Positions 13,900 to 27,229 of a stretch of 44,514 nt of DNA are shown here, in pieces. The DNA is taken from UHGV virus genome UHGV-1355725. One strand, 5' to 3'. The position numbers and the translations under genes are program-made. The notes under the pieces were generated by a model. That model searched no databases. It saw only the letters and a list, made by a program, of their open reading frames with translations, and was not told the DNA's origin. Numbering within the stretch: position 1 is the first letter of the stretch; the number at the start of each line of letters is the position of its first letter. The DNA comes from a virus.

Positions 13900-14412
13900 T
13901 TAACCCCGGTACACGTTAAATGAGAAGCCATTGTTAAGACCGCCACACAGTAACGGGCGTAAGGCATCATCCGCAGCGGTAATCGCGGTTGTAGCGCCAC
14001 TGTTGCCGTTGTTGAAGTAGGTCACTGTTACTGCGCCCTCTACACGCTCAGTCTGTACGGAGCGGCCGTCCGAGTTAGCCCGCACCTCAGTACCCGCGCC
14101 ATACGTAACCGCAGCGATTACCTGCGCAAGAATAACCTGTTTCGGGATGACATTGTTAGCCACAGGGAAGCCATTCAACGTTACCCCCGTGCGCGGGTAT
14201 GCAAGATATTGTTCGGCGGATACGCGGCGTCCGCACATCTGCGATTCTGCGAGCCCAACATAAGTAGCGCCGTTGCGCAAGGCTACTTCCGCCGCTGTGT
14301 CATCTTCCGGTAACTCCAGACCATAATTAGCCGCTAACGCGCTGGCGTCAGCCAGACTAATATAACTGTCAGCGCCAGGTACTATTGACCCATCTTCCAC
14401 GATTAGCGGCAT
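13900..14412 (-). CDS. head-tail connector protein (gp6-like)
   Basis: 170-aa ORF; N-terminal YISLADASALAANYG... resembles head-tail connector proteins; position after the capsid/decoration genes. Confidence 0.4.
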   Translation of the reverse strand: MPLIVEDGSIVPGADSYISLADASALAANYGLELPEDDTAAEVALRNGATYVGLAESQMCGRRVSAEQYLAYPRTGVTLNGFPVANNVIPKQVILAQVIAAVTYGAGTEVRANSDGRSVQTERVEGAVTVTYFNNGNSGATTAITAADDALRPLLCGGLNNGFSFNVYRG

Positions 14413-14415
14413 AAA

Positions 14416-14595
14416 TTATTCCTCTGACTTACGGCGACGACGCTTAGCACCACCGCCGTTGTTGTGCGCTTCTTCGTTGTCCGGTTGGGTTGCAACCAGT
14501 TCATCCGCTTCTACGACACCGCGAACGGGCATCACCTGACCATCAACAACATCAACGTGAGTGTACTTTTCACGGATTACATAATTATCTGCCAT
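14416..14595 (-). CDS. small basic protein
   Basis: 59-aa ORF absent from the ORF track; ATG 14595 with RBS AAGGAAAGG; C-terminal GGGAKRRRRK. Confidence 0.3.
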   Translation of the reverse strand: MADNYVIREKYTHVDVVDGQVMPVRGVVEADELVATQPDNEEAHNNGGGAKRRRRKSEE

Positions 14596-14994: not shown

Positions 14995-15022
14995 AATGAA
15001 AAGAGGGACCGAAGTCCCTCTC
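14995..15022 (-). terminator. rho-independent terminator/attenuator after the capsid gene
   Basis: Hairpin GAGGGAC-ttcg-GTCCCTC followed on the minus strand by TTTTCATTT; lies between the capsid stop (15038) and the next gene. Confidence 0.5.
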
Positions 15023-15037
15023 GATTATAGCTTAACC

Positions 15038-16087
15038 TTAAGACCCGACACCAGTTACCAGGAAGGCAATCGGTACGTGCTTACGTTCAACAACACGGTT
15101 CCAGTTGGAGGCGTTCGCCAGGTCCTGCCAGGAAGCGGAGCGCGGGGTAGTCTCGGTGCCGTTGCCGGTGATTACTGCGCTGGTGAAGCTGTAGCCCAGT
15201 GGGTGCAGCAACCAGGTCTTACGGGTCCACAGGGTTTCGACGCCACCACCGTTACCACGAGACTCTTCGCGCTCATAGGCCAGCGGGTTGGACGGAGAAC
15301 CTTCACCATAACCGATAGCGCCGTTGCCGAAGATGATGGAGATGAACTTACGGCTCGGGCCAGTACCAACTACGGTCATGCTGTCGTCAACGATCACGCG
15401 GTAGCCCTGGTAGGTGGCAAACAGGGTGTCGTTGTCAGCGTTCTTGATGAAGTCAATAAGCTGCTGCTTACGGGCCTGCGCGTATACGAAGCTGTGCATA
15501 GCGATAGCGCCCAGCACTTCACCGCCGTTGCCCATCAGCGCATCACCCATAGTCTGGGTAGCGTCGATGAACGCGCCTGCGTCGAAGCCCAGAGTAGATG
15601 ACACGTCGATTACCATGTCGTTCTGCTCGTGGTATGCGTCGGTAGCGGCCACGTTGTCATTATACAGGCCAAGCGCAGTAGCAATCAGACGGCGTTGCGC
15701 CTGGCGCTGCCAGAAGTTATCCAGGCGAGAAGCCACAGATTGCAGCGGGTTCTGGCTGGTCAGTTCAACGGTCAGGTCAGCCTGGCCAAAACCTTCGTTC
15801 AGGTAAGCTACGCGCGCCATCATCTCACCGGTCTGGACATTACGCGGGGTAGCGATGTCCTGGTATACGTCGTTCGAGTAGTTTGGCTCGATAGATGTAT
15901 CAATCGCTTTCCAGAAAGGAATATTAGCGATGTTGGACGGGCCGCGGGCAATCTCGGCAGCGTATGGGGTCGGGGTCAGAATACCGGACTGGAAGAACGC
16001 GGTTTTTTCTACCGGGTCCTCGGTCATATAAGACGCCAGGACCGGGATGTTGCCAGTTACGATATCGCCGATAGTGGTAATTGCCAT
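15038..16087 (-). CDS. major capsid protein
   Basis: 349 aa, ATG 16087 with RBS GAGGAA; follows the scaffold gene and is followed by a terminator hairpin; classic head-module position. Confidence 0.7.
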   Translation of the reverse strand: MAITTIGDIVTGNIPVLASYMTEDPVEKTAFFQSGILTPTPYAAEIARGPSNIANIPFWKAIDTSIEPNYSNDVYQDIATPRNVQTGEMMARVAYLNEGFGQADLTVELTSQNPLQSVASRLDNFWQRQAQRRLIATALGLYNDNVAATDAYHEQNDMVIDVSSTLGFDAGAFIDATQTMGDALMGNGGEVLGAIAMHSFVYAQARKQQLIDFIKNADNDTLFATYQGYRVIVDDSMTVVGTGPSRKFISIIFGNGAIGYGEGSPSNPLAYEREESRGNGGGVETLWTRKTWLLHPLGYSFTSAVITGNGTETTPRSASWQDLANASNWNRVVERKHVPIAFLVTGVGS

Positions 16088-16089
16088 TA

Positions 16090-16791
16090 TTATTTCCTCA
16101 GGGCTTTAAGTTGCCGTTCAAATTCGGCAGGGTTCGATTTATACAGGGCTAAACGCTCTGCTTCACTCATGTCTTTAAACGCTGGTGCGGCCCCGCCGCC
16201 TTTGCTACCGGAAGCCCCGCCGCCGGAAGCTGCATTTGCTTTAATCAAATGCGAAAACGCTTTGTGTTCACGCAGATATTTACGGAACTGTTCCGGGTCA
16301 GTCGTGATTACGTTTCCGTCTGCGCCAACAAACTTAGTAACCACATCGTCACCTTCGAACTCAGTCTTAACGAACGGCGCAAGGATGTCCACTGCTTCCG
16401 GGGTAATAAAGTCACCTGCGAAAGAGCCTAACACCGCTTTACGTTCGCTGCCGAGGATGCGCTCCGCCATTCTGGAGATGCGACCGTCTTTCTCGGCTAA
16501 CACCGGGTCATACTGGCTACGAATCGTCTTTTCGAACTCGTCCATCTTACCTGCGGCTTTTAACGCCTCCTGGTGTGCGCGCTGCCGTTCTTCTTCGGCC
16601 TCTTTTGCTTTGCGAGCGGCTTCTTTCTTCTCCGCCAGCAATGCTTCCTGATTGGCCTTAAGCCCGGCAACTTCTTTCTCAATCAGCGCCTGAACTTCTT
16701 CAGCGGTGAACATTTTCGGCGCATCACCACCACCGGCTTTATCTTCTGCCCCAGCTTCTTCCTGGAACGGATAACGTAAAAAACGATTCAT
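16090..16791 (-). CDS. scaffolding protein
   Basis: Ala/Glu/Lys-rich helical ORF (EKKEAARKAKEAEEERQRAHQEALKAAGK) directly upstream of the capsid gene; start at 16791 is uncertain. Confidence 0.55.
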   Translation of the reverse strand: MNRFLRYPFQEEAGAEDKAGGGDAPKMFTAEEVQALIEKEVAGLKANQEALLAEKKEAARKAKEAEEERQRAHQEALKAAGKMDEFEKTIRSQYDPVLAEKDGRISRMAERILGSERKAVLGSFAGDFITPEAVDILAPFVKTEFEGDDVVTKFVGADGNVITTDPEQFRKYLREHKAFSHLIKANAASGGGASGSKGGGAAPAFKDMSEAERLALYKSNPAEFERQLKALRK

Positions 16792-16873
16792 AGTCAGTAT
16801 GTCCCCTGGACGTTGGAATCCGGGCCACCCGGATTTACATGTCAAGAATAAATTATTCCAACATGCAAGGCAA

Positions 16874-17137
16874 CTATTCCAGAATATTCCTCACGTAATC
16901 CTGCAACATGAACACTTTCAGTCTCAGTTGCCGTACACATTCAGCGTTCTGAACGTCGATAGCTAAATCCTCATCCGCGTTGCTACTTGGCGGGGCCAGT
17001 TTGCACGGCGGCTGCATCATCGTCATATCCGGGGATGGAATTGGCGTTGGCGACTGCGCTGGACTTGAGCTGCACGCGCTCAGGGTCAAAAGTGCACACG
17101 CTGCGACCAGGCGTTTTAATGTACTTAACGACTTCAC
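16874..17137 (-). CDS. o-spanin (Rz1-like outer-membrane lipoprotein)
   Basis: GTG start with RBS AGAGGTGA; signal peptide with lipobox LSAC; Pro-rich mature part (CSSSPAQSPTPIPSP...); begins inside the i-spanin gene in another frame and extends past it. Confidence 0.55.
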   Translation of the reverse strand: MKSLSTLKRLVAACALLTLSACSSSPAQSPTPIPSPDMTMMQPPCKLAPPSSNADEDLAIDVQNAECVRQLRLKVFMLQDYVRNILE

Positions 17138-17369
17138 GGGTAATCACCTCTGATTTCGTCTTGCCTTCGTTGTCAGCGGCGGCGGCCTTCGATTCATCCT
17201 GCTGCTGCCGTTGTGTTTTCTTCGCTAACTCAGCCTGTGCTTTCTGCTGTTGCTGCGAAACGAGATTCGCCCGGCCTTCGTTCCAGCCGCTGCGATACTG
17301 GTAGACGCCGTGTGCGTAAGCCAGGATGATGAAACATGCCGCCGCTACGACAGTTGCTTTAAGATTCAT
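16983..17369 (-). CDS. i-spanin (Rz-like)
   Basis: 128 aa; N-terminal TM anchor (MNLKATVVAAACFIILAY), Gln/Ala-rich coiled coil; RBS AAGGAG; overlapping lipoprotein gene in alternative frame. Confidence 0.55.
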   Translation of the reverse strand: MNLKATVVAAACFIILAYAHGVYQYRSGWNEGRANLVSQQQQKAQAELAKKTQRQQQDESKAAAADNEGKTKSEVITREVVKYIKTPGRSVCTFDPERVQLKSSAVANANSIPGYDDDAAAVQTGPAK

Positions 17370-17620
17370 GTTTCTCCTTTCTCGATAAGTAAAGCCCCGC
17401 CATAAAGCGGGGCGCTAGTCCTTATCATTTAAACATAGAAACGGCGTAATCTCAGTAAACCCGTTACTTTTTACACAAGCAATAGAGTATGGCCCTTCCG
17501 AACGCGTCAGCGTAACTACACTCAGGACTTACGTCCCGCTCCGTTACCTGCCCGCGCCGCGGTCGCTTGTTCATGCTTCACAAGCTCAGGTGGAGCTTAG
17601 CATATTTTCAGTGAAAAGTC

Positions 17621-17636
17621 AACTATTCGAATAGTT
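17621..17636. repeat. 16-bp perfect palindrome AACTATTCGAATAGTT
   Basis: Exact self-complementary 16-mer in the non-coding region upstream of the spanin genes; contains CTATT/AATAG half-sites in inverted order relative to the operator motif. Confidence 0.9.
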
Positions 17637-17688
17637 TATTCCAACATTTACAATTCATAAGAATAACTGGAATAGGTAAATAAATAGT

Positions 17689-17720
17689 TTGCAGACACCA
17701 ATATAATAGGGTACTATTCA
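17689..17720 (+). promoter_or_regulatory. class-1 promoter with embedded inverted-repeat operator
   Basis: TTGCAG (17689-17694), 17-bp spacer, TACTAT (17712-17717); inverted repeat AATAG-GGTA-CTATT 17705-17718; RBS AGGAGG and ATG 17745 follow. Confidence 0.5.
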
Positions 17721-17744
17721 GTTAACTTAAACAGGAGGCGATAT

Positions 17745-17975
17745 ATGGGTACATACACACATTCTATAAACTGGAAAGGCAGACGTGGTTTGGCGGTTCT
17801 CGAAGGGGGTGTTTCAGGCCCCCACGCGTTTGGGTGGTGGCTAGTGCCATCGTATTCAAACAAACATGGCGGGCAGGACTACGACTGGAATAACGCCGTT
17901 CCTACTAGATTCAAAACAAAGAAAGCCGCGTTGGATGCACGTAAAGAGTTAAGAAAAGGAGGATTATTTTTATAG
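17745..17975 (+). CDS. hypothetical protein (single-gene insertion)
   Basis: 76-aa ORF with own promoter and terminator, on the opposite strand to the flanking late genes. Confidence 0.5.
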   Translation: MGTYTHSINWKGRRGLAVLEGGVSGPHAFGWWLVPSYSNKHGGQDYDWNNAVPTRFKTKKAALDARKELRKGGLFL

Positions 17976-17980
17976 TAAAA

Positions 17981-18008
17981 CTAAGGCCCCATTATGGGGC
18001 CTTTTATC
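17981..18008. terminator. bidirectional rho-independent terminator
   Basis: Hairpin AGGCCCC-attat-GGGGCCT (17984-18002) followed by TTTT; lies between convergent stops. Confidence 0.6.
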
Positions 18009-18468
18009 ATTCTGGCTTAGTGACCTTCGCCGCTTTGCTTACCACCTCTACACCATCGGCATCGGTAACTTTAACGAAGTATTCACCCGCCGCGTTAACC
18101 GTCAGAGACAAAGCCTCTTCCGGGGCGTTGACTACTTCCTTACCGTCTTTGTACCAGGTCAGCACATATGGCGCTTTGCCCGCCTTAACTTCAACAGTGA
18201 TAGTTGCGCTGCCGTCTGCTGGTTCGACGTCTTTCGGTTGCACCGAGAAGTACACGTCACCCGCGTCCGCCAGATACGGAATCTCATAAAGCATACCCGC
18301 CGCCGGGAGCGCAATACCGGTTTTATCCGCAAACGGCATATCGTCTACCGGTGTACCTAGTACACTTTCATCTTCGATAAATACCACATTCTCGCTAGAG
18401 CCAGACACGCGGGCGTACTGGACTACGCGACGAGAAGGTACATCAGTTACTTTGAAAAAGCCCATCAT
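18007..18468 (-). CDS. Ig-like domain structural protein
   Basis: 153 aa; C-terminal Ig-like segment (ATITVEVKAGKAPYVLTWYKDGKEV...GEYFVKVTDADG); coupled to the head morphogenesis gene. Confidence 0.45.
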   Translation of the reverse strand: MMGFFKVTDVPSRRVVQYARVSGSSENVVFIEDESVLGTPVDDMPFADKTGIALPAAGMLYEIPYLADAGDVYFSVQPKDVEPADGSATITVEVKAGKAPYVLTWYKDGKEVVNAPEEALSLTVNAAGEYFVKVTDADGVEVVSKAAKVTKPE

Positions 18469-20405
18469 TATTCCCCTTTCAGATAATCAGCAACACGTCT
18501 ATCGAGTTCCGCCATCTGCTTAAGCGTGAGCGGATTCCCGAAACCATCTACAGATATTACGCGAAACTCTTCCGGCGATATACCGCTGTTGCGGAAAATC
18601 TTACCCCGCACCGGGCCTAACGCCTGGTCCTGAAACCATGCAGGTTGTTGTTTAAGGAACTCGTAATAAGTGGTGTCCGCACTTACCTGAGTTCCGCCAT
18701 CTGCACCCTTAGCCGCGCGTTTTGCGCCTTTATCCAGGAAGTCGAACTCTGAACTGATTACAGGTGCCGTGGTACTTCGGCAGCCAAAATGGGCTGGGGG
18801 CATTGGCCCTTTACCAATCTCCCACGTCATTCCGTCTCTGGCCCTGCAATTCTTGACTATCGCACTACCTGCTGTATAATATCCTTGACTACTAGAGAGG
18901 GTATAAACATGGCACGTTCTAAACTCGACGCTTATGCGGATGATATTTGTTCTTTGTACCGAGATGGCACTCCCGCCAGCATCATAGCCAAGAATTACGG
19001 CGTCACTACCACCACGGTAACAACATTTCTCAAGAAGCTCGGACTCATGCATGATCGACCCCGTGGTTGGGTTTCTAACGACACCATTTTGAATCAAAAA
19101 AGGGCTATAGAATTGTTCGAGTCCGGCGTCCCGCCTATTGAGTGCATAAGAAGGACCCAAGTCAGCAAAACAGTTTTCTATTCTATGGTCAAAACACTTG
19201 GCCTCGCTAAGCGCGGGCACACTCACAGGACATTCACCCCGGAGGAGAAAATCGCCAGAGCTATCGTCCGACAGCAAAGCGGCGCTATGAATAAGACTGA
19301 AACCATCGCTTTTGAATTGTTTAATTCCGCTGGCGTGGACGTAGTTCCGCAGTTTGCAATCGGCCCGTACAATGTCGATTTTGCCATTGAGTCCCACTCC
19401 ATCGCCATAGAAATCTGTTGCCGCGGGACTCGTGCTTACCATTTTCCTGATGGGGAAATCAGCGAGCGTATTAAAAATATAATCCGCTCTGGCTGGCATG
19501 TTTATGTTCTTCACTGTTTCGAGCACAGTCACTTTGTCAACAGTGGTATACAAGACATGCTTAGTTGGATCGAGTTCATCAAGCGGAGTCCATCCGTATT
19601 GCGTGAGTACAGGGTGTTTCGGGGTGCCACTGAACTTCTCGCCGTTGGAAAGTTCGATGGTAAAGATTTTTCCTGAATAGAGTCCGCGCATTACCGCGTC
19701 CATCCCCGCGATGGGCGCTAATTCTGTTTCAGCCGTGAAACACGTTGTACTGGTACGGCTGTCCAATGTTGATACCCACTCATATTTCTCGATGATGTCG
19801 TCGTTCTGGCGGTACGTCTCGTTACGTGCTTCATTGGACACGTGAGACAGCGCGGTGCGGATTACAGTAGCCGCGTTACGTTCAGAGATGTCAGCCAGTC
19901 CGCCAGCGCCTACAACACTTTTAACAATCTGCCGCGTAGTTTGGCCTTGTACGAAGCCCATCTTAACGCCAGTTACCAGGCGCGCGACTTCTGTTTCACC
20001 CCAACCTGACATCAGCTTGGTGAAGTCAACAGGCTTGTCGCTCAGTGAGAGCGGCTGAAACTCGGCGGCGGCCCACACCTGTTCTGCGGTAGGTGTAACA
20101 AATTCCGCGTTAACGTTGGCGGTCAGTGTCTTTACGTTCCACTCAGCCTCATACTTCGCCAATTCCTTAAGGTCTTCTGTCAGCTTTGTTTGCCAGTCAC
20201 CTGTAAGCCAGGTTAGCGCTTCTTCAAGGTTGAGTAACAGTTTATTCAGTCGCGCAGTGCTCCGCCCGTCGTCGCCGAATAACAGCACCTGCCGTTTGAT
20301 TTCGTCCCGCATTTCCTGAATGAACGGTGCAAGGTCTTTCACTTCTCCGGAAGCGGTTCGTTGCAGCCATATCTGGTGGCTGATTAAGGATGTAAGTAAG
20401 CTCAT
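18468..20405 (-). CDS. head morphogenesis protein (SPP1 gp7 / Mu F-like) interrupted by an intein
   Basis: ATG 20405 with RBS AGGAGG; F-like motifs WVSTLDSRTSTT (before the intein) and GKGPMPPAHFGCRS (after); 298-aa insertion with intein signatures between them; located just after the portal gene. Confidence 0.7.
   Translation of the reverse strand: MSLLTSLISHQIWLQRTASGEVKDLAPFIQEMRDEIKRQVLLFGDDGRSTARLNKLLLNLEEALTWLTGDWQTKLTEDLKELAKYEAEWNVKTLTANVNAEFVTPTAEQVWAAAEFQPLSLSDKPVDFTKLMSGWGETEVARLVTGVKMGFVQGQTTRQIVKSVVGAGGLADISERNAATVIRTALSHVSNEARNETYRQNDDIIEKYEWVSTLDSRTSTTCFTAETELAPIAGMDAVMRGLYSGKIFTIELSNGEKFSGTPKHPVLTQYGWTPLDELDPTKHVLYTTVDKVTVLETVKNINMPARADYIFNTLADFPIRKMVSTSPAATDFYGDGVGLNGKIDIVRADCKLRNYVHASGIKQFKSDGFSLIHSAALLSDDSSGDFLLRGECPVSVPALSEAKCFDHRIENCFADLGPSYALNRRDAGLEQFYSPFLIQNGVVRNPTTGSIMHESELLEKCCYRGGSDAVILGYDAGGSAISVQRTNIIRISVEFRTCHVYTLSSSQGYYTAGSAIVKNCRARDGMTWEIGKGPMPPAHFGCRSTTAPVISSEFDFLDKGAKRAAKGADGGTQVSADTTYYEFLKQQPAWFQDQALGPVRGKIFRNSGISPEEFRVISVDGFGNPLTLKQMAELDRRVADYLKGE
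18853..18880 (+). promoter_or_regulatory. near-consensus sigma70-type promoter inside the intein, antisense to the head morphogenesis gene
   Basis: TTGACT (18853-18858), 16-bp spacer, TATAAT (18875-18880); RBS GAGAGGG and ATG 18909 follow. Confidence 0.5.
18909..19676 (+). CDS. nested antisense gene: HTH domains plus DUF559/Vsr-like (PD-(D/E)xK-type) endonuclease domain, candidate homing endonuclease
   Basis: 255 aa from ATG 18909; two HTH-like segments (IIAKNYGVTTTTVTTFLKKLGL; IECIRRTQVSKTVFYSMVKTLGL); C-terminal YNVDFAIESHSIAIEI...RSGWHVYVL resembling Vsr/DUF559 endonucleases; lies entirely within the intein on the opposite strand. Confidence 0.55.
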   Translation: MARSKLDAYADDICSLYRDGTPASIIAKNYGVTTTTVTTFLKKLGLMHDRPRGWVSNDTILNQKRAIELFESGVPPIECIRRTQVSKTVFYSMVKTLGLAKRGHTHRTFTPEEKIARAIVRQQSGAMNKTETIAFELFNSAGVDVVPQFAIGPYNVDFAIESHSIAIEICCRGTRAYHFPDGEISERIKNIIRSGWHVYVLHCFEHSHFVNSGIQDMLSWIEFIKRSPSVLREYRVFRGATELLAVGKFDGKDFS

Positions 20406-20448
20406 AGGCCCTCCTGTAGTATCGACAGTGTAACGCATAAAAATAATA

Positions 20449-20481
20449 TTTGCAGACACCAATATAATAGGGTACTATTCA
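20449..20481 (+). promoter_or_regulatory. class-1 promoter with embedded inverted-repeat operator
   Basis: TTGCAG (20449-20454), 17-bp spacer, TACTAT (20473-20478); inverted repeat AATAG-GGTA-CTATT 20466-20479; 40-nt block identical to the copy at 17689. Confidence 0.5.
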
Positions 20482-20506
20482 GTTAACTTAAACAGGGGGG
20501 TTAAAA

Positions 20507-20791
20507 ATGACACACAAATTTAAAGGTACAGACGGCGCATGGGTTAATCACGGAACAGCTATCTGGGCGGGGGACGTTTATGTGGCCGAGGTAATGAGTA
20601 TGCGGGAAAAGGACTCCGTAAAATTAGCTAACGCAAAACTTATCACCTCGGCACCCGAGTTACTTGAAGCACTTCGCCAGCTTCGCGATTACGTCGAGGA
20701 TGTTTGTGCAGTATCTTCTGATGATTGCCATGAAGACCATCCATTAAATCGGGCCAACAGAGCAATCAAGAAAGCATTAGGAAAGAAATAA
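20507..20791 (+). CDS. hypothetical protein (single-gene insertion)
   Basis: 94-aa ORF between the head morphogenesis and portal genes on the opposite strand; own promoter and terminator. Confidence 0.5.
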   Translation: MTHKFKGTDGAWVNHGTAIWAGDVYVAEVMSMREKDSVKLANAKLITSAPELLEALRQLRDYVEDVCAVSSDDCHEDHPLNRANRAIKKALGKK

Positions 20792-20794
20792 AAA

Positions 20795-20820
20795 TAAGGC
20801 CCCATAACGGGGCCTTTTTC
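20795..20820. terminator. bidirectional rho-independent terminator
   Basis: Hairpin AAGGCCCC-ataac-GGGGCCTT followed by TTTTTC; between convergent stops (20791 plus, 20822 minus). Confidence 0.6.
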
Positions 20821-26192: not shown

Positions 26193-26678
26193 TCATTTAA
26201 CAGCCCTCCCGATAGCCTCAGCCTCTTGCCACGGTTTACCGTCGAACAGCGCCAGACGACCAGCTGTACGGCGACGCAGGCCTAGTAATGGTTTACCGTT
26301 CTGGTTAATGAACAGCGCCAGCTTAGCCCGCAGTGTCGCGGTATCACCCGAACGCAGCGCCTTACCCGTGCCAGTAGTAGCTGCAATCACGCCAGCACCT
26401 GCGTTATAGACCAGGTCGCACACTGCGTCGAACTGGGCCTGCGTCAGTGAATGGTGTGCTGCTGCATCAACCGCGGCTACGGCTTTAGCCATATCACGAT
26501 TCAGTAACAGGAGGCCTTGTCCCGGTGTGATGGTCTTACCCGGGGTTACGTCCGGCCCATAGTGACCGTAGCCGATAGTCAGGTACTTCTCATTCGGCGT
26601 AGCACGATATGCAGTACCACGGAATCCCTCGAACGCTGCGGTAAAATGCAAGCCATTATCTGAAATGTTTCGAGACAC
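26193..26678 (-). CDS. endolysin, GH24 (T4-lysozyme-like) family
   Basis: Motif FEGFRGTAYRATPNEKYLTIGYGH characteristic of phage lysozyme; GTG start with RBS GGAGGA; overlaps the upstream holin-like gene. Confidence 0.8.
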   Translation of the reverse strand: MSRNISDNGLHFTAAFEGFRGTAYRATPNEKYLTIGYGHYGPDVTPGKTITPGQGLLLLNRDMAKAVAAVDAAAHHSLTQAQFDAVCDLVYNAGAGVIAATTGTGKALRSGDTATLRAKLALFINQNGKPLLGLRRRTAGRLALFDGKPWQEAEAIGRAVK

Positions 26679-26928
26679 GCTTATGTCCTCCGTACGACAG
26701 CCACGCCTGGCGAATCTGGCGCAGCGCAACTAATGTTATTAATGTTTCAGGCAGCGTAGGCGACATGCTGCCTTGTAACAGGTGGATACATCCGGCGGCG
26801 CAGACAATAGCAGTCAGGATATAGAGCACCCGACCAAATAGCCCGTCGTCCACGCGTTCATTATACACGTTGAACAGGGACGAAGCGCCCATTGCCAGCA
26901 TTACGACAAACCAGAATAACTCATTCAT
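26656..26928 (-). CDS. holin/antiholin-like membrane protein
   Basis: 90 aa from ATG 26928 (RBS GAGGAGG); two hydrophobic segments; positioned between holin and endolysin. Confidence 0.45.
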   Translation of the reverse strand: MNELFWFVVMLAMGASSLFNVYNERVDDGLFGRVLYILTAIVCAAGCIHLLQGSMSPTLPETLITLVALRQIRQAWLSYGGHKRVSKHFR

Positions 26929-27229
26929 CCGGGCCTCCTCGACGTGCGATGTATTCTCCGGCGACGATGCCAGAAAGGCGGGAATAGATAGGCATCCAGA
27001 GAATAGCGATGATGAAGCCCAGGCCGGCGATTTCACGATCACCTGTGATGCCGAACCACTGAGCCGCGAGAGGTGCGCCAAATACGGCGCAGGTGAAGCC
27101 TGTCGCAATAAAGCAGAACCCATCGACAGGGCCGGAAATGGTGGTCTTATGTTGCCTTAGTCCGATTACCCCGCCGGCTAGTGCGGCAGCGAGAAGCCAG
27201 CCTGTCACTGTTTCAGTAAATTTATCCAA
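26921..27229 (-). CDS. holin
   Basis: 102 aa with multiple TM segments (WLLAAALAGGVIGL; GFCFIATGFTCAVFGAPLAA; GLGFIIAILWMPIY); first gene of the lysis cassette. Confidence 0.5.
   Translation of the reverse strand: MDKFTETVTGWLLAAALAGGVIGLRQHKTTISGPVDGFCFIATGFTCAVFGAPLAAQWFGITGDREIAGLGFIIAILWMPIYSRLSGIVAGEYIARRGGPDE

Follow-up and report, generated by a model that had tools for sequence, protein, structure and literature searches.

An overlapped Jersey-family spanin gene pair among the head genes of a Kagunavirus genome, apart from the holin-endolysin cassette

Two overlapping open reading frames in the head gene region of the virus genome UHGV-1355725 very probably encode the functional two-component spanin of a Kagunavirus phage, and we put the probability of this reading at about 0.9, with the membrane-fusion function assigned by analogy with lambda. 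The window, by which we mean the whole stretch of 44,514 nucleotides, is a Kagunavirus (Guernseyvirinae) genome with ~93% identity to Escherichia phages fEg-Eco06 and Bas70-76, and its size of 44.5 kb and its gene order are those of a complete Kagunavirus genome. When positions 15000-20500 were compared with GenBank phages by megablast, 486 records were matched, and the top matches, all of them Kagunavirus with 92-93% identity, were fEg-Eco06, KMB36 and the BASEL phages Bas70-76. The spanin genes lie well away from the holin and endolysin genes. Judging from the gene orders of relatives, this split layout is standard for Guernseyvirinae and Dhillonvirus, and it is the usual one in the group of E. 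coli and Salmonella phages to which the window belongs; although real, it is unremarkable and has been on public record before.

Structure and conservation of the spanin genes

Both reading frames were found exactly where the first-pass annotation had placed them (Table 1). That annotation described the product of the larger frame as Rz-like, anchored in the membrane at its N terminus and containing a coiled coil, and the analysis bears this out. The i-spanin gene starts with ATG behind the Shine-Dalgarno sequence AAAGGAG. A single hydrophobic segment is present in its product (residues 5-23, with a Kyte-Doolittle 19-residue maximum of 1.82) and none was detected elsewhere, which together with the helical AlphaFold prediction describes a small type II inner-membrane protein with one N-terminal transmembrane domain. 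Modeled from the single sequence, residues 2-63 form one continuous helix with block-mean pLDDT values of 75-90, while the C-terminal half is of low confidence. The periplasmic part is rich in Q, A, E and K, has Cys92 as its single cysteine, and is predicted to be largely alpha-helical or coiled-coil; for the near-identical i-spanin of phage K1G one segment, 33-66, is listed in Table S1 of the spanin catalogue of Kongari et al. (PMC6139136), which we read as a coiled-coil prediction.

The second frame was described as an overlapping, proline-rich, Rz1-like lipoprotein with the lipobox LSAC in a different frame, and this description also holds. The o-spanin frame is +1 relative to Rz and the two genes share 155 bp. 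Its signal peptide, MKSLSTLKRLVAACALLTLSA, is followed by CSS and ends in the lipobox LTLSA before Cys22, so that a PROSITE-type lipobox rule is matched; Ser rather than Asp at +2 is an outer-membrane sorting signal. The predicted lipoprotein signal is therefore present, and the signal peptide is the same as that of K1G. The mature o-spanin has 66 aa, 9 of them proline, and 2 further cysteines, Cys24 and Cys46, which are kept in relatives along with Cys92 of the i-spanin.

Table 1. Positions of the lysis, head and putative regulatory features in the window
Feature	Position	Strand	Basis
Holin 1	26921..27229	-	phrog_2359 / phrog_2508 holins; TM segments
Holin 2	26656..26928	-	phrog_2359 / phrog_2508 holins; TM segments
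Soluble lysozyme-type endolysin	26193..26678	-	Pfam Phage_lysozyme E 1e-26, endolysin PHROGs; no TM segment
Near-identical copy of the bidirectional terminator-like hairpin	20796-20816	.	sequence comparison
Head-morphogenesis (Mu F-like) gene, with intein	18468..20405	-	
Hoc-like decoration gene	18007..18468	-	
Bidirectional terminator-like hairpin, Hoc-like gene / antisense small ORF	17983..18003	.	terminator scan
Palindrome GGAATAAACTATTC, just upstream of promoter candidate	17629-17642		read from sequence
Sigma-70-like promoter candidate (TTGACT, 17-nt spacer ending TGC, TAAGCT)	17594..17622	-	read from sequence
Conserved structured leader, ~220 nt	17370..17592	-	alignments, RNAalifold, pair counts
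GC hairpin in leader, 25 nt upstream of Rz start	17394-17413	-	terminator-like in scan
i-spanin (Rz-like) gene, 128 aa	16983..17369	-	ORF list, PHROGs, hydropathy, AlphaFold
Shine-Dalgarno GAGGTG of o-spanin, within i-spanin gene	17145..17150	-	read from sequence; conserved in relatives
Dual-coding overlap, 155 bp (i-spanin 3' end / o-spanin 5' end)	16983..17137	-	ORF coordinates
o-spanin (Rz1-like) predicted outer-membrane lipoprotein gene, 87 aa, GTG start	16874..17137	-	ORF list, PHROGs, lipobox rule
Second palindrome copy GGAATAATTTATTC, then TTGACA, between Rz1 stop and scaffold start	16846-16859	-	
Hairpin AATCCGGGTGGCCCGGATT ahead of scaffold RBS	16817-16835	-	Rz1-to-scaffold intergenic elements 16817..16859
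Scaffold	16090..16791	-	phrog_206 E 3e-55; annotation of relatives
Major capsid protein (MCP)	15038..16087	-	annotation of relatives
Terminator-like hairpin after MCP	15001-15022		terminator scan

Database comparisons place both proteins among known spanins. The i-spanin matched the PHROGs family phrog_2536 ('Rz-like spanin') with an E-value of 1.2e-56, and the o-spanin matched two families of the same description, phrog_5672 (9.3e-30) and phrog_1267 (3.1e-20); even the best cross-family matches, to phrog_8821, phrog_1152 and P2_Rz1, were weak. For the two spanins nothing rose above threshold in Pfam (DUF2514, 18.2 bits, cut-off 26) or NCBIfam (P2_Rz1, 15.4 bits, cut-off 27), and a PDB sequence search matched no solved structure, so PHROGs and the Kongari catalogue are the basis of the family assignment. 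The i-spanin is 96% identical to the Bas71 protein, and tblastn found it in 661 phage records, with identities of 90-96% to Kagunavirus and 55-77% to Jerseyvirus and Cornellvirus. Many GenBank records of relatives that are therapeutic candidates annotate just 47 aa of the o-spanin and leave out its signal peptide.

An overlapping frame could in principle be a chance or decaying frame without function, and the same could be asked of the whole pair. Lipobox-bearing reading frames alone are within chance, as the window has 3 of them where shuffled sequences yield 2.0, and the 47-aa database fragments would also fit such a view. However, in all 27 distinct Kagunavirus-type sequences gathered from IMG/VR and GenBank both frames keep their 128 and 87 aa, and the full-length o-spanin frame, with its start, Shine-Dalgarno sequence, lipobox and stop, is intact both there and in five further lineages. 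Codon-position variability among these 27 sequences was highest at Rz position 3 in the part that is Rz only (0.105 vs 0.027 and 0.025), was flattened across the 155-bp overlap (0.049, 0.040, 0.080), and was highest at Rz1 position 3 in the part that is Rz1 only (0.114 vs 0.026 and 0.006). The most variable position thus shifts from Rz position 3 to Rz1 position 3 exactly at the frame change, and third-position variability tracks the Rz1 frame past the Rz stop. Purifying selection acts on both frames. The +1-frame lipobox ORF is kept in six lineages, including Kagunavirus, Jerseyvirus, Klebsiella phage VLCpiS11a, Dhillonvirus Bas84 and Yersinia phage P400, and persists down to ~30% i-spanin identity. 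The 661 records with the i-spanin, the conserved frames and the codon-position shift put the pair as a whole far beyond chance; the idea of a functionless frame, against which the strong PHROG E-values also count and to which we would give almost no credence, is effectively refuted already by the conservation of the frames and the codon-position pattern. The two other lipobox frames in the window are out-of-frame artefacts inside other genes, and for this reason the window-wide lipobox scan left no second lipoprotein or u-spanin candidate, including beside the endolysin.

Position of the pair relative to the lysis cassette

The spanin genes are not part of a contiguous holin-endolysin-spanin cassette. 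The minus-strand order runs from two holins and the endolysin through about ten small ORFs, the small and large terminase genes, portal and head-morphogenesis gene to the Hoc-like gene, an antisense small ORF, the ~220-nt leader, Rz/Rz1, scaffold and MCP. The holin-holin-endolysin cassette is annotated likewise in fEg-Eco06. The first-pass annotation had placed the pair between the scaffold and head-morphogenesis genes, ~9 kb from the holin and endolysin genes; the placement is correct, with the Hoc-like gene, the antisense ORF and the leader also in the gap, and the distance from Rz start to endolysin stop measures 8.8 kb.

Comparison with related genomes found the split layout to be widespread, so it is no peculiarity of the window. 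Spanins occupy the same slot in Kagunavirus (Bas76, fEg-Eco06), Jerseyvirus (sidste, S103, SGPC), Klebsiella phage VLCpiS11a and Dhillonvirus Bas84, where the holins and endolysin are ~6 kb upstream across the genome origin, and also in Cornellvirus VSiP and TS6 as a 'separated' variant. Published gene lists agree with this, with spanins and holin/endolysin genes given as ORF7/8 and ORF66-68 in Golestan (PMC7203180), gp9/10 and gp63-65 in SeF1 (PMC9409062), 030/031 and 016-018 in K1B4 (PMC12645636 supplement), and CDS 80/81 and CDS 13-15 in one published Kagunavirus. In the literature searched, the gene lists carry no comment and no paper was found that discusses the spanin location explicitly, nor were any experiments on Jersey-family spanins found (complementation, processing or spanin-specific transcripts). 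The gene orders indicate that the unlinked arrangement is stable across at least five phage genera. As a known and conserved trait of a described spanin family, the split layout itself adds little. It does mean that lysis genes need not cluster, and annotation pipelines should seek spanins outside the lysis cassette.

The slot itself is a variable region in relatives, where Hoc-like genes, methyltransferases and antisense ORFs are also found. One account of the layout is that the pair is what remains of a full lysis cassette that once opened the late structural operon, rather than an insertion into the head module; holin and endolysin would have been lost from this slot and replaced by the cassette at 26-27 kb. 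In Yersinia phage P400 a Jersey-family pair (30% identity) directly follows an endolysin and a holin-like gene, and this whole cassette follows the portal and head-assembly genes of that phage. In the window the spanins come first after a unit of promoter-like site, leader and hairpin, which resembles the pR'-tR' arrangement of lambda. However, P400 is one genome only, the variability of the slot speaks against this account, and the P400 head-assembly protein lacks BLASTP similarity to that of the window, so the two slots may not be homologous; homology of the P400 site with the slot was dropped for this reason, leaving a positional analogy. We consider loss of a former cassette at this site unlikely.

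The intein of the head-morphogenesis gene carries an antisense gene for a Vsr-like homing endonuclease of 255 aa, of which the nuclease half has pLDDT below 50 in AlphaFold. A non-canonical intein architecture was recently described in actinobacteriophages; with an antisense Vsr-like gene inside the intein of a head protein, it now reaches enterobacterial phages as well. As by-products of this study, the leader described below and the intein could matter more than the location of the spanins.

Leader and proposed transcription unit of the spanins

The lysis function was also proposed by the first-pass annotation to be split between two transcription units. The separation of the genes stands, but two transcription units are something we infer, favored by hairpins and a promoter-like site and qualified by the fact that everything from the holins through MCP is on one strand, where read-through would be possible. 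On the sequence elements present, among them the terminator-like hairpin after MCP, we lean towards the reading that spanins, scaffold and MCP form one unit and the holins and endolysin another. The two near-identical hairpins between the lysis cassette and the spanins have U-runs and are each paired with an antisense ORF, and the one after the Hoc-like gene lies as a boundary between the spanin unit and the head genes upstream of it. A simple promoter scan found no consensus promoter directly upstream of Rz; the promoter candidate ahead of the leader was missed by it because its -10 hexamer matches at only 3/6 positions. Despite diverged flanks, Jerseyvirus keeps this candidate as TAGACT ... 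TGTTACGCT. An operator-like palindrome, GGAATA-N3-TATTC, is conserved beside the promoter-like site and recurs before the scaffold gene, both copies being conserved in Jerseyvirus. In Jerseyvirus the hairpin ahead of the scaffold ribosome-binding site is preserved by compensatory changes, and Klebsiella phage VLCpiS11a has it too. A third copy of the palindrome, at 14408-14422, was rejected as an operator, as it consists of the ribosome-binding site and ATG of the head-tail adaptor gene.

In lambda the pR' transcript covers both S-R-Rz/Rz1 and the head genes, and the region from the holins to MCP could likewise be read as one long late minus-strand transcript, with the hairpins read through or serving as processing or stability sites. 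The co-orientation of all these genes would fit, as would the lack of a consensus promoter directly upstream of Rz in the simple scan and the poor U-tract of the hairpin before Rz, especially in Jerseyvirus. In addition, transcriptomics of K1B4, the sole Kagunavirus time-course, put lysozyme, Mu-F-like and capsid genes in one temporal class. A single transcript would nevertheless have to pass two strong, bidirectional, near-identical hairpins with U-runs; the -35, TGn and -10 elements and the adjacent palindrome are conserved between genera upstream of the leader, and the annotations of close relatives include no antiterminator gene. These points make one continuous transcript improbable in our view, and separate units are the better supported arrangement.

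The leader between the promoter candidate and Rz is conserved in structure. RNAalifold of 30 distinct Kagunavirus and Jerseyvirus leaders gave 37 pairs in 7 helices, with 98.7% of cells paired in the alignment compared with 34-54% when the partners were slid. Nine pairs were changed on both sides compared with 0-3 in the slid controls, including four variants of the GC hairpin, and independent covariation events are few because essentially two clades were sampled. A segment near the 3' end (17381-17389), between the GC hairpin and the Shine-Dalgarno sequence of Rz, can pair either with 17421-17426 (GAUAAG/CUUAUC, in Jerseyvirus UAUACG/CGUAUA) or with the 5' end of the leader (17575-17590), and both alternative pairings are intact in 30 of the 30 sequences. 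Folded as a single sequence, the leader of the window had z = -3.0, while the Jerseyvirus leader had z = -1.1, which is not significant and was obtained from a stretch without the first ~13 nt, the 5' pairing segment. The Cornellvirus leader differs. The leader matched nothing in Rfam, either at gathering thresholds or at E <= 1, and a tRNA scan was negative. A 36-aa ORF at 17464..17574(-), annotated in relatives, was rejected as a gene, as its start is lost in Jerseyvirus through an 11-nt deletion.

It is possible, though we hold it only tentatively from the conserved pairings, that a dedicated, regulated late unit begins with the spanins and that the leader is a new cis-regulatory RNA that sets the level or timing of spanin and capsid expression in Guernseyvirinae. 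An attenuator, a switch masking the ribosome-binding site, or a processing site would be the options in that case. If the GC hairpin were an efficient terminator, transcripts from the proposed promoter would not reach the spanins. No description of late-gene regulation in this phage group was found in the literature searched, and a conserved structured element before the spanin-scaffold-capsid block, if it is one, would give a handle on late-gene control.

Proposed mechanism and comparison with known systems

Two-component spanins such as lambda Rz/Rz1 accumulate late in both membranes and are inactive under intact murein. By this analogy, the N-terminal helix of the i-spanin would anchor it in the inner membrane with the rest of the protein reaching across the periplasm, and the o-spanin would be sorted as a lipoprotein to the outer membrane. 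The C-terminal regions of the two proteins would bind each other, and disulfide-linked complexes would span the periplasm. The holins (26656..27229) would then release the endolysin, the peptidoglycan would be destroyed, and the freed spanin complexes would fuse the inner and outer membranes as the last step of lysis. In the window the pair heads the scaffold and major-capsid block behind its own promoter-like site and structured leader, ~9 kb downstream of the co-oriented cassette. As spanins would be harmless until the wall is gone, late synthesis may be enough and co-regulation with the holin unneeded; in other words, linkage to the holin may be dispensable because spanin action is gated physically and not by the timing of expression. 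Physical gating fits the stable unlinked arrangement across the genera noted above.

Spanins were catalogued in 677 phage genomes by Kongari et al. (2018, BMC Bioinformatics 19:326, PMC6139136), and the largest overlapped family in that study, 'Jersey', has 27 members, among them Jersey, SETP3, K1G, K1H, K1ind1-3, HK578 and EK99P-1. In phage Jersey the overlap is 155 bp, and two conserved o-spanin cysteines were noted (PMC6139136). Table S1 of the same study lists the architecture of the K1G pair as 'ovl' and gives its o-spanin the lipoprotein signal MKSLSTLKRLVAACALLTLSA followed by CSS, with a mature form of 66 aa (PMC6139136). The spanins of the window are near-identical to the 'putative spannin' proteins of K1G, K1H and K1ind, and compared by eye with the K1G and K1H sequences printed in that table they differ at few residues. 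Since the match extends to sequence, signal, mature length and architecture, the pair is in effect already catalogued, and its sequence makes it one more member of the described Jersey overlapped spanin family. It shares with that family the i-spanin of 128 aa, the o-spanin of 87 aa, the length of the overlap, the K1G-identical signal peptide and lipobox, and the conserved o-spanin cysteine pair and lone periplasmic i-spanin cysteine; the differences are a few amino acid substitutions and nothing substantial.

Likeness to lambda Rz/Rz1 is by architecture: in both, a type II inner-membrane protein and a +1-frame outer-membrane lipoprotein are encoded by the same DNA, and the o-spanin is proline-rich with periplasmic cysteines. 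In lambda, however, Rz1 is wholly embedded in Rz whereas the genes of the window are overlapped, and the lambda pair ends a contiguous S-R-Rz/Rz1 cassette whereas the pair of the window is remote from holin and endolysin. The T7 spanin genes 18.5 and 18.7 are located among DNA-packaging and late structural genes, distant from the lysozyme gene 3.5, but they differ from those of the window in their embedded architecture, in having the holin gene 17.5 nearby and in belonging to another family. The textbook precedent for unlinked spanin genes is T4 PseT.3/PseT.2 (Fig. 8 legend in Kongari et al., PMC6139136), which differs from the pair described here in its 'separated' architecture, its sequence family and its location in a non-structural region.

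The leader region upstream of the spanin-scaffold-capsid block

In this genome the i-spanin gene Rz is preceded by a structured leader of about 220 nt that ends at the Rz start. Two conserved elements lie upstream of that leader, a site that resembles a promoter and a palindrome that resembles an operator. Comparison of the Kagunavirus and Jerseyvirus versions showed that the leader helices covary, with 9 pairs changed on both sides. When the predicted pairs were scored over leaders of both genera, 98.7% of cells were paired, compared with 34-54% in slid controls. The segment adjoining the Rz RBS can form two alternative pairings that are mutually exclusive. A search of the Rz leader against Rfam gave no match. 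It may be a regulatory leader acting in cis on the spanin-scaffold-capsid block, or an attenuator of that block.

The palindrome occurs a second time between Rz1, the o-spanin gene, and the scaffold gene, and the hairpin in that region directly precedes the scaffold RBS. Jerseyvirus keeps this hairpin via compensatory changes (ACACCGGG...CUCGGUGU), and the Klebsiella phage VLCpiS11a also has it. The 36-aa ORF within the leader was considered as a gene and rejected; it is probably not a gene because an 11-nt deletion removes its start in Jerseyvirus and it had no hit in PHROG.

Locations of the features described (L001, L002, L005 and L006 are loci in relatives)
Feature	Location	Strand	Remarks
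Promoter-like site, operator-like palindrome and structured leader	window 17370-17642	-	conserved
36-aa ORF	window 17464-17574	-	inside structured leader; "hypothetical protein" in Bas76 and fEg-Eco06
Second palindrome copy GGAATAATTTATTC, then TTGACA; hairpin AAUCCGGGUGGCCCGGAUU	window 16817-16859	-	Rz1-to-scaffold intergenic
o-Spanin homologues of window 16874-17137	L001 4875-5018; L002 12250-12396; L006 4353-4496		
Endolysin, holin-like, i-/o-spanin cassette	L005 3340-4909		Yersinia phage vB_YenS_P400; contiguous
Antisense mini-cassette 1	window 17677-18005	+	cargo 76-aa ORF, no family
Antisense mini-cassette 2	window 20438-20818	+	cargo 94-aa ORF, phrog_1273, unknown function
298-aa intein in Mu-F-like head-morphogenesis gene	window 18849-19742	-	extein junctions ...STT|C and N|CRARDG
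255-aa ORF wholly within intein, opposite strand	window 18909-19676	+	promoter-like sites

Spanin genes in related phages

In many GenBank records the o-spanin is annotated as a 47-48-aa fragment that starts at an internal Met and is without the signal peptide and lipobox, and PHROG 5672 is itself a 47-position profile of the same short kind. The VLCpiS11a record leaves the o-spanin unannotated. A full-length lipoprotein ORF of 82-93 aa is present in each of these phages. The spanin pair of Yersinia phage P400 is a distant member of the Jersey family (i-spanin identity 30%), and its lysis cassette has portal, head-assembly and HNH genes directly before it and thymidylate synthase and other non-structural genes after it. 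This cassette may show the spanin slot seen here in an ancestral form or in an alternative one.

Antisense genes of the head module

The two antisense mini-cassettes have in common a 62-nt leader (90% identity, with an RBS) and a 30-nt bidirectional terminator, and their ORFs are unrelated to each other. At the first site, Bas76 and fEg-Eco06 carry the same leader and terminator with a different ORF between them; this cassette is absent from the Jerseyvirus sidste, and the second is absent from fEg-Eco06. The mini-cassettes resemble moron-type cassettes whose cargo can be exchanged.

The antisense ORF within the intein gave weak matches to HTH_7 (E 2e-4) and to the PD-(D/E)XK family REase_MTES_1575 (E 9e-4), and it is missing from the fEg-Eco06 annotation. 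The same head-morphogenesis gene in sidste contains a different intein at a different insertion site, and the antisense ORF of that intein is homologous to the 255-aa ORF (24% identity, E 2e-9). Minor-capsid inteins of actinobacteriophages were recently described as carrying Vsr-like homing endonucleases in antisense orientation (bioRxiv 10.1101/2025.01.02.630785), and the antisense intein ORF reported here would carry that type of arrangement over to enterobacterial phages.
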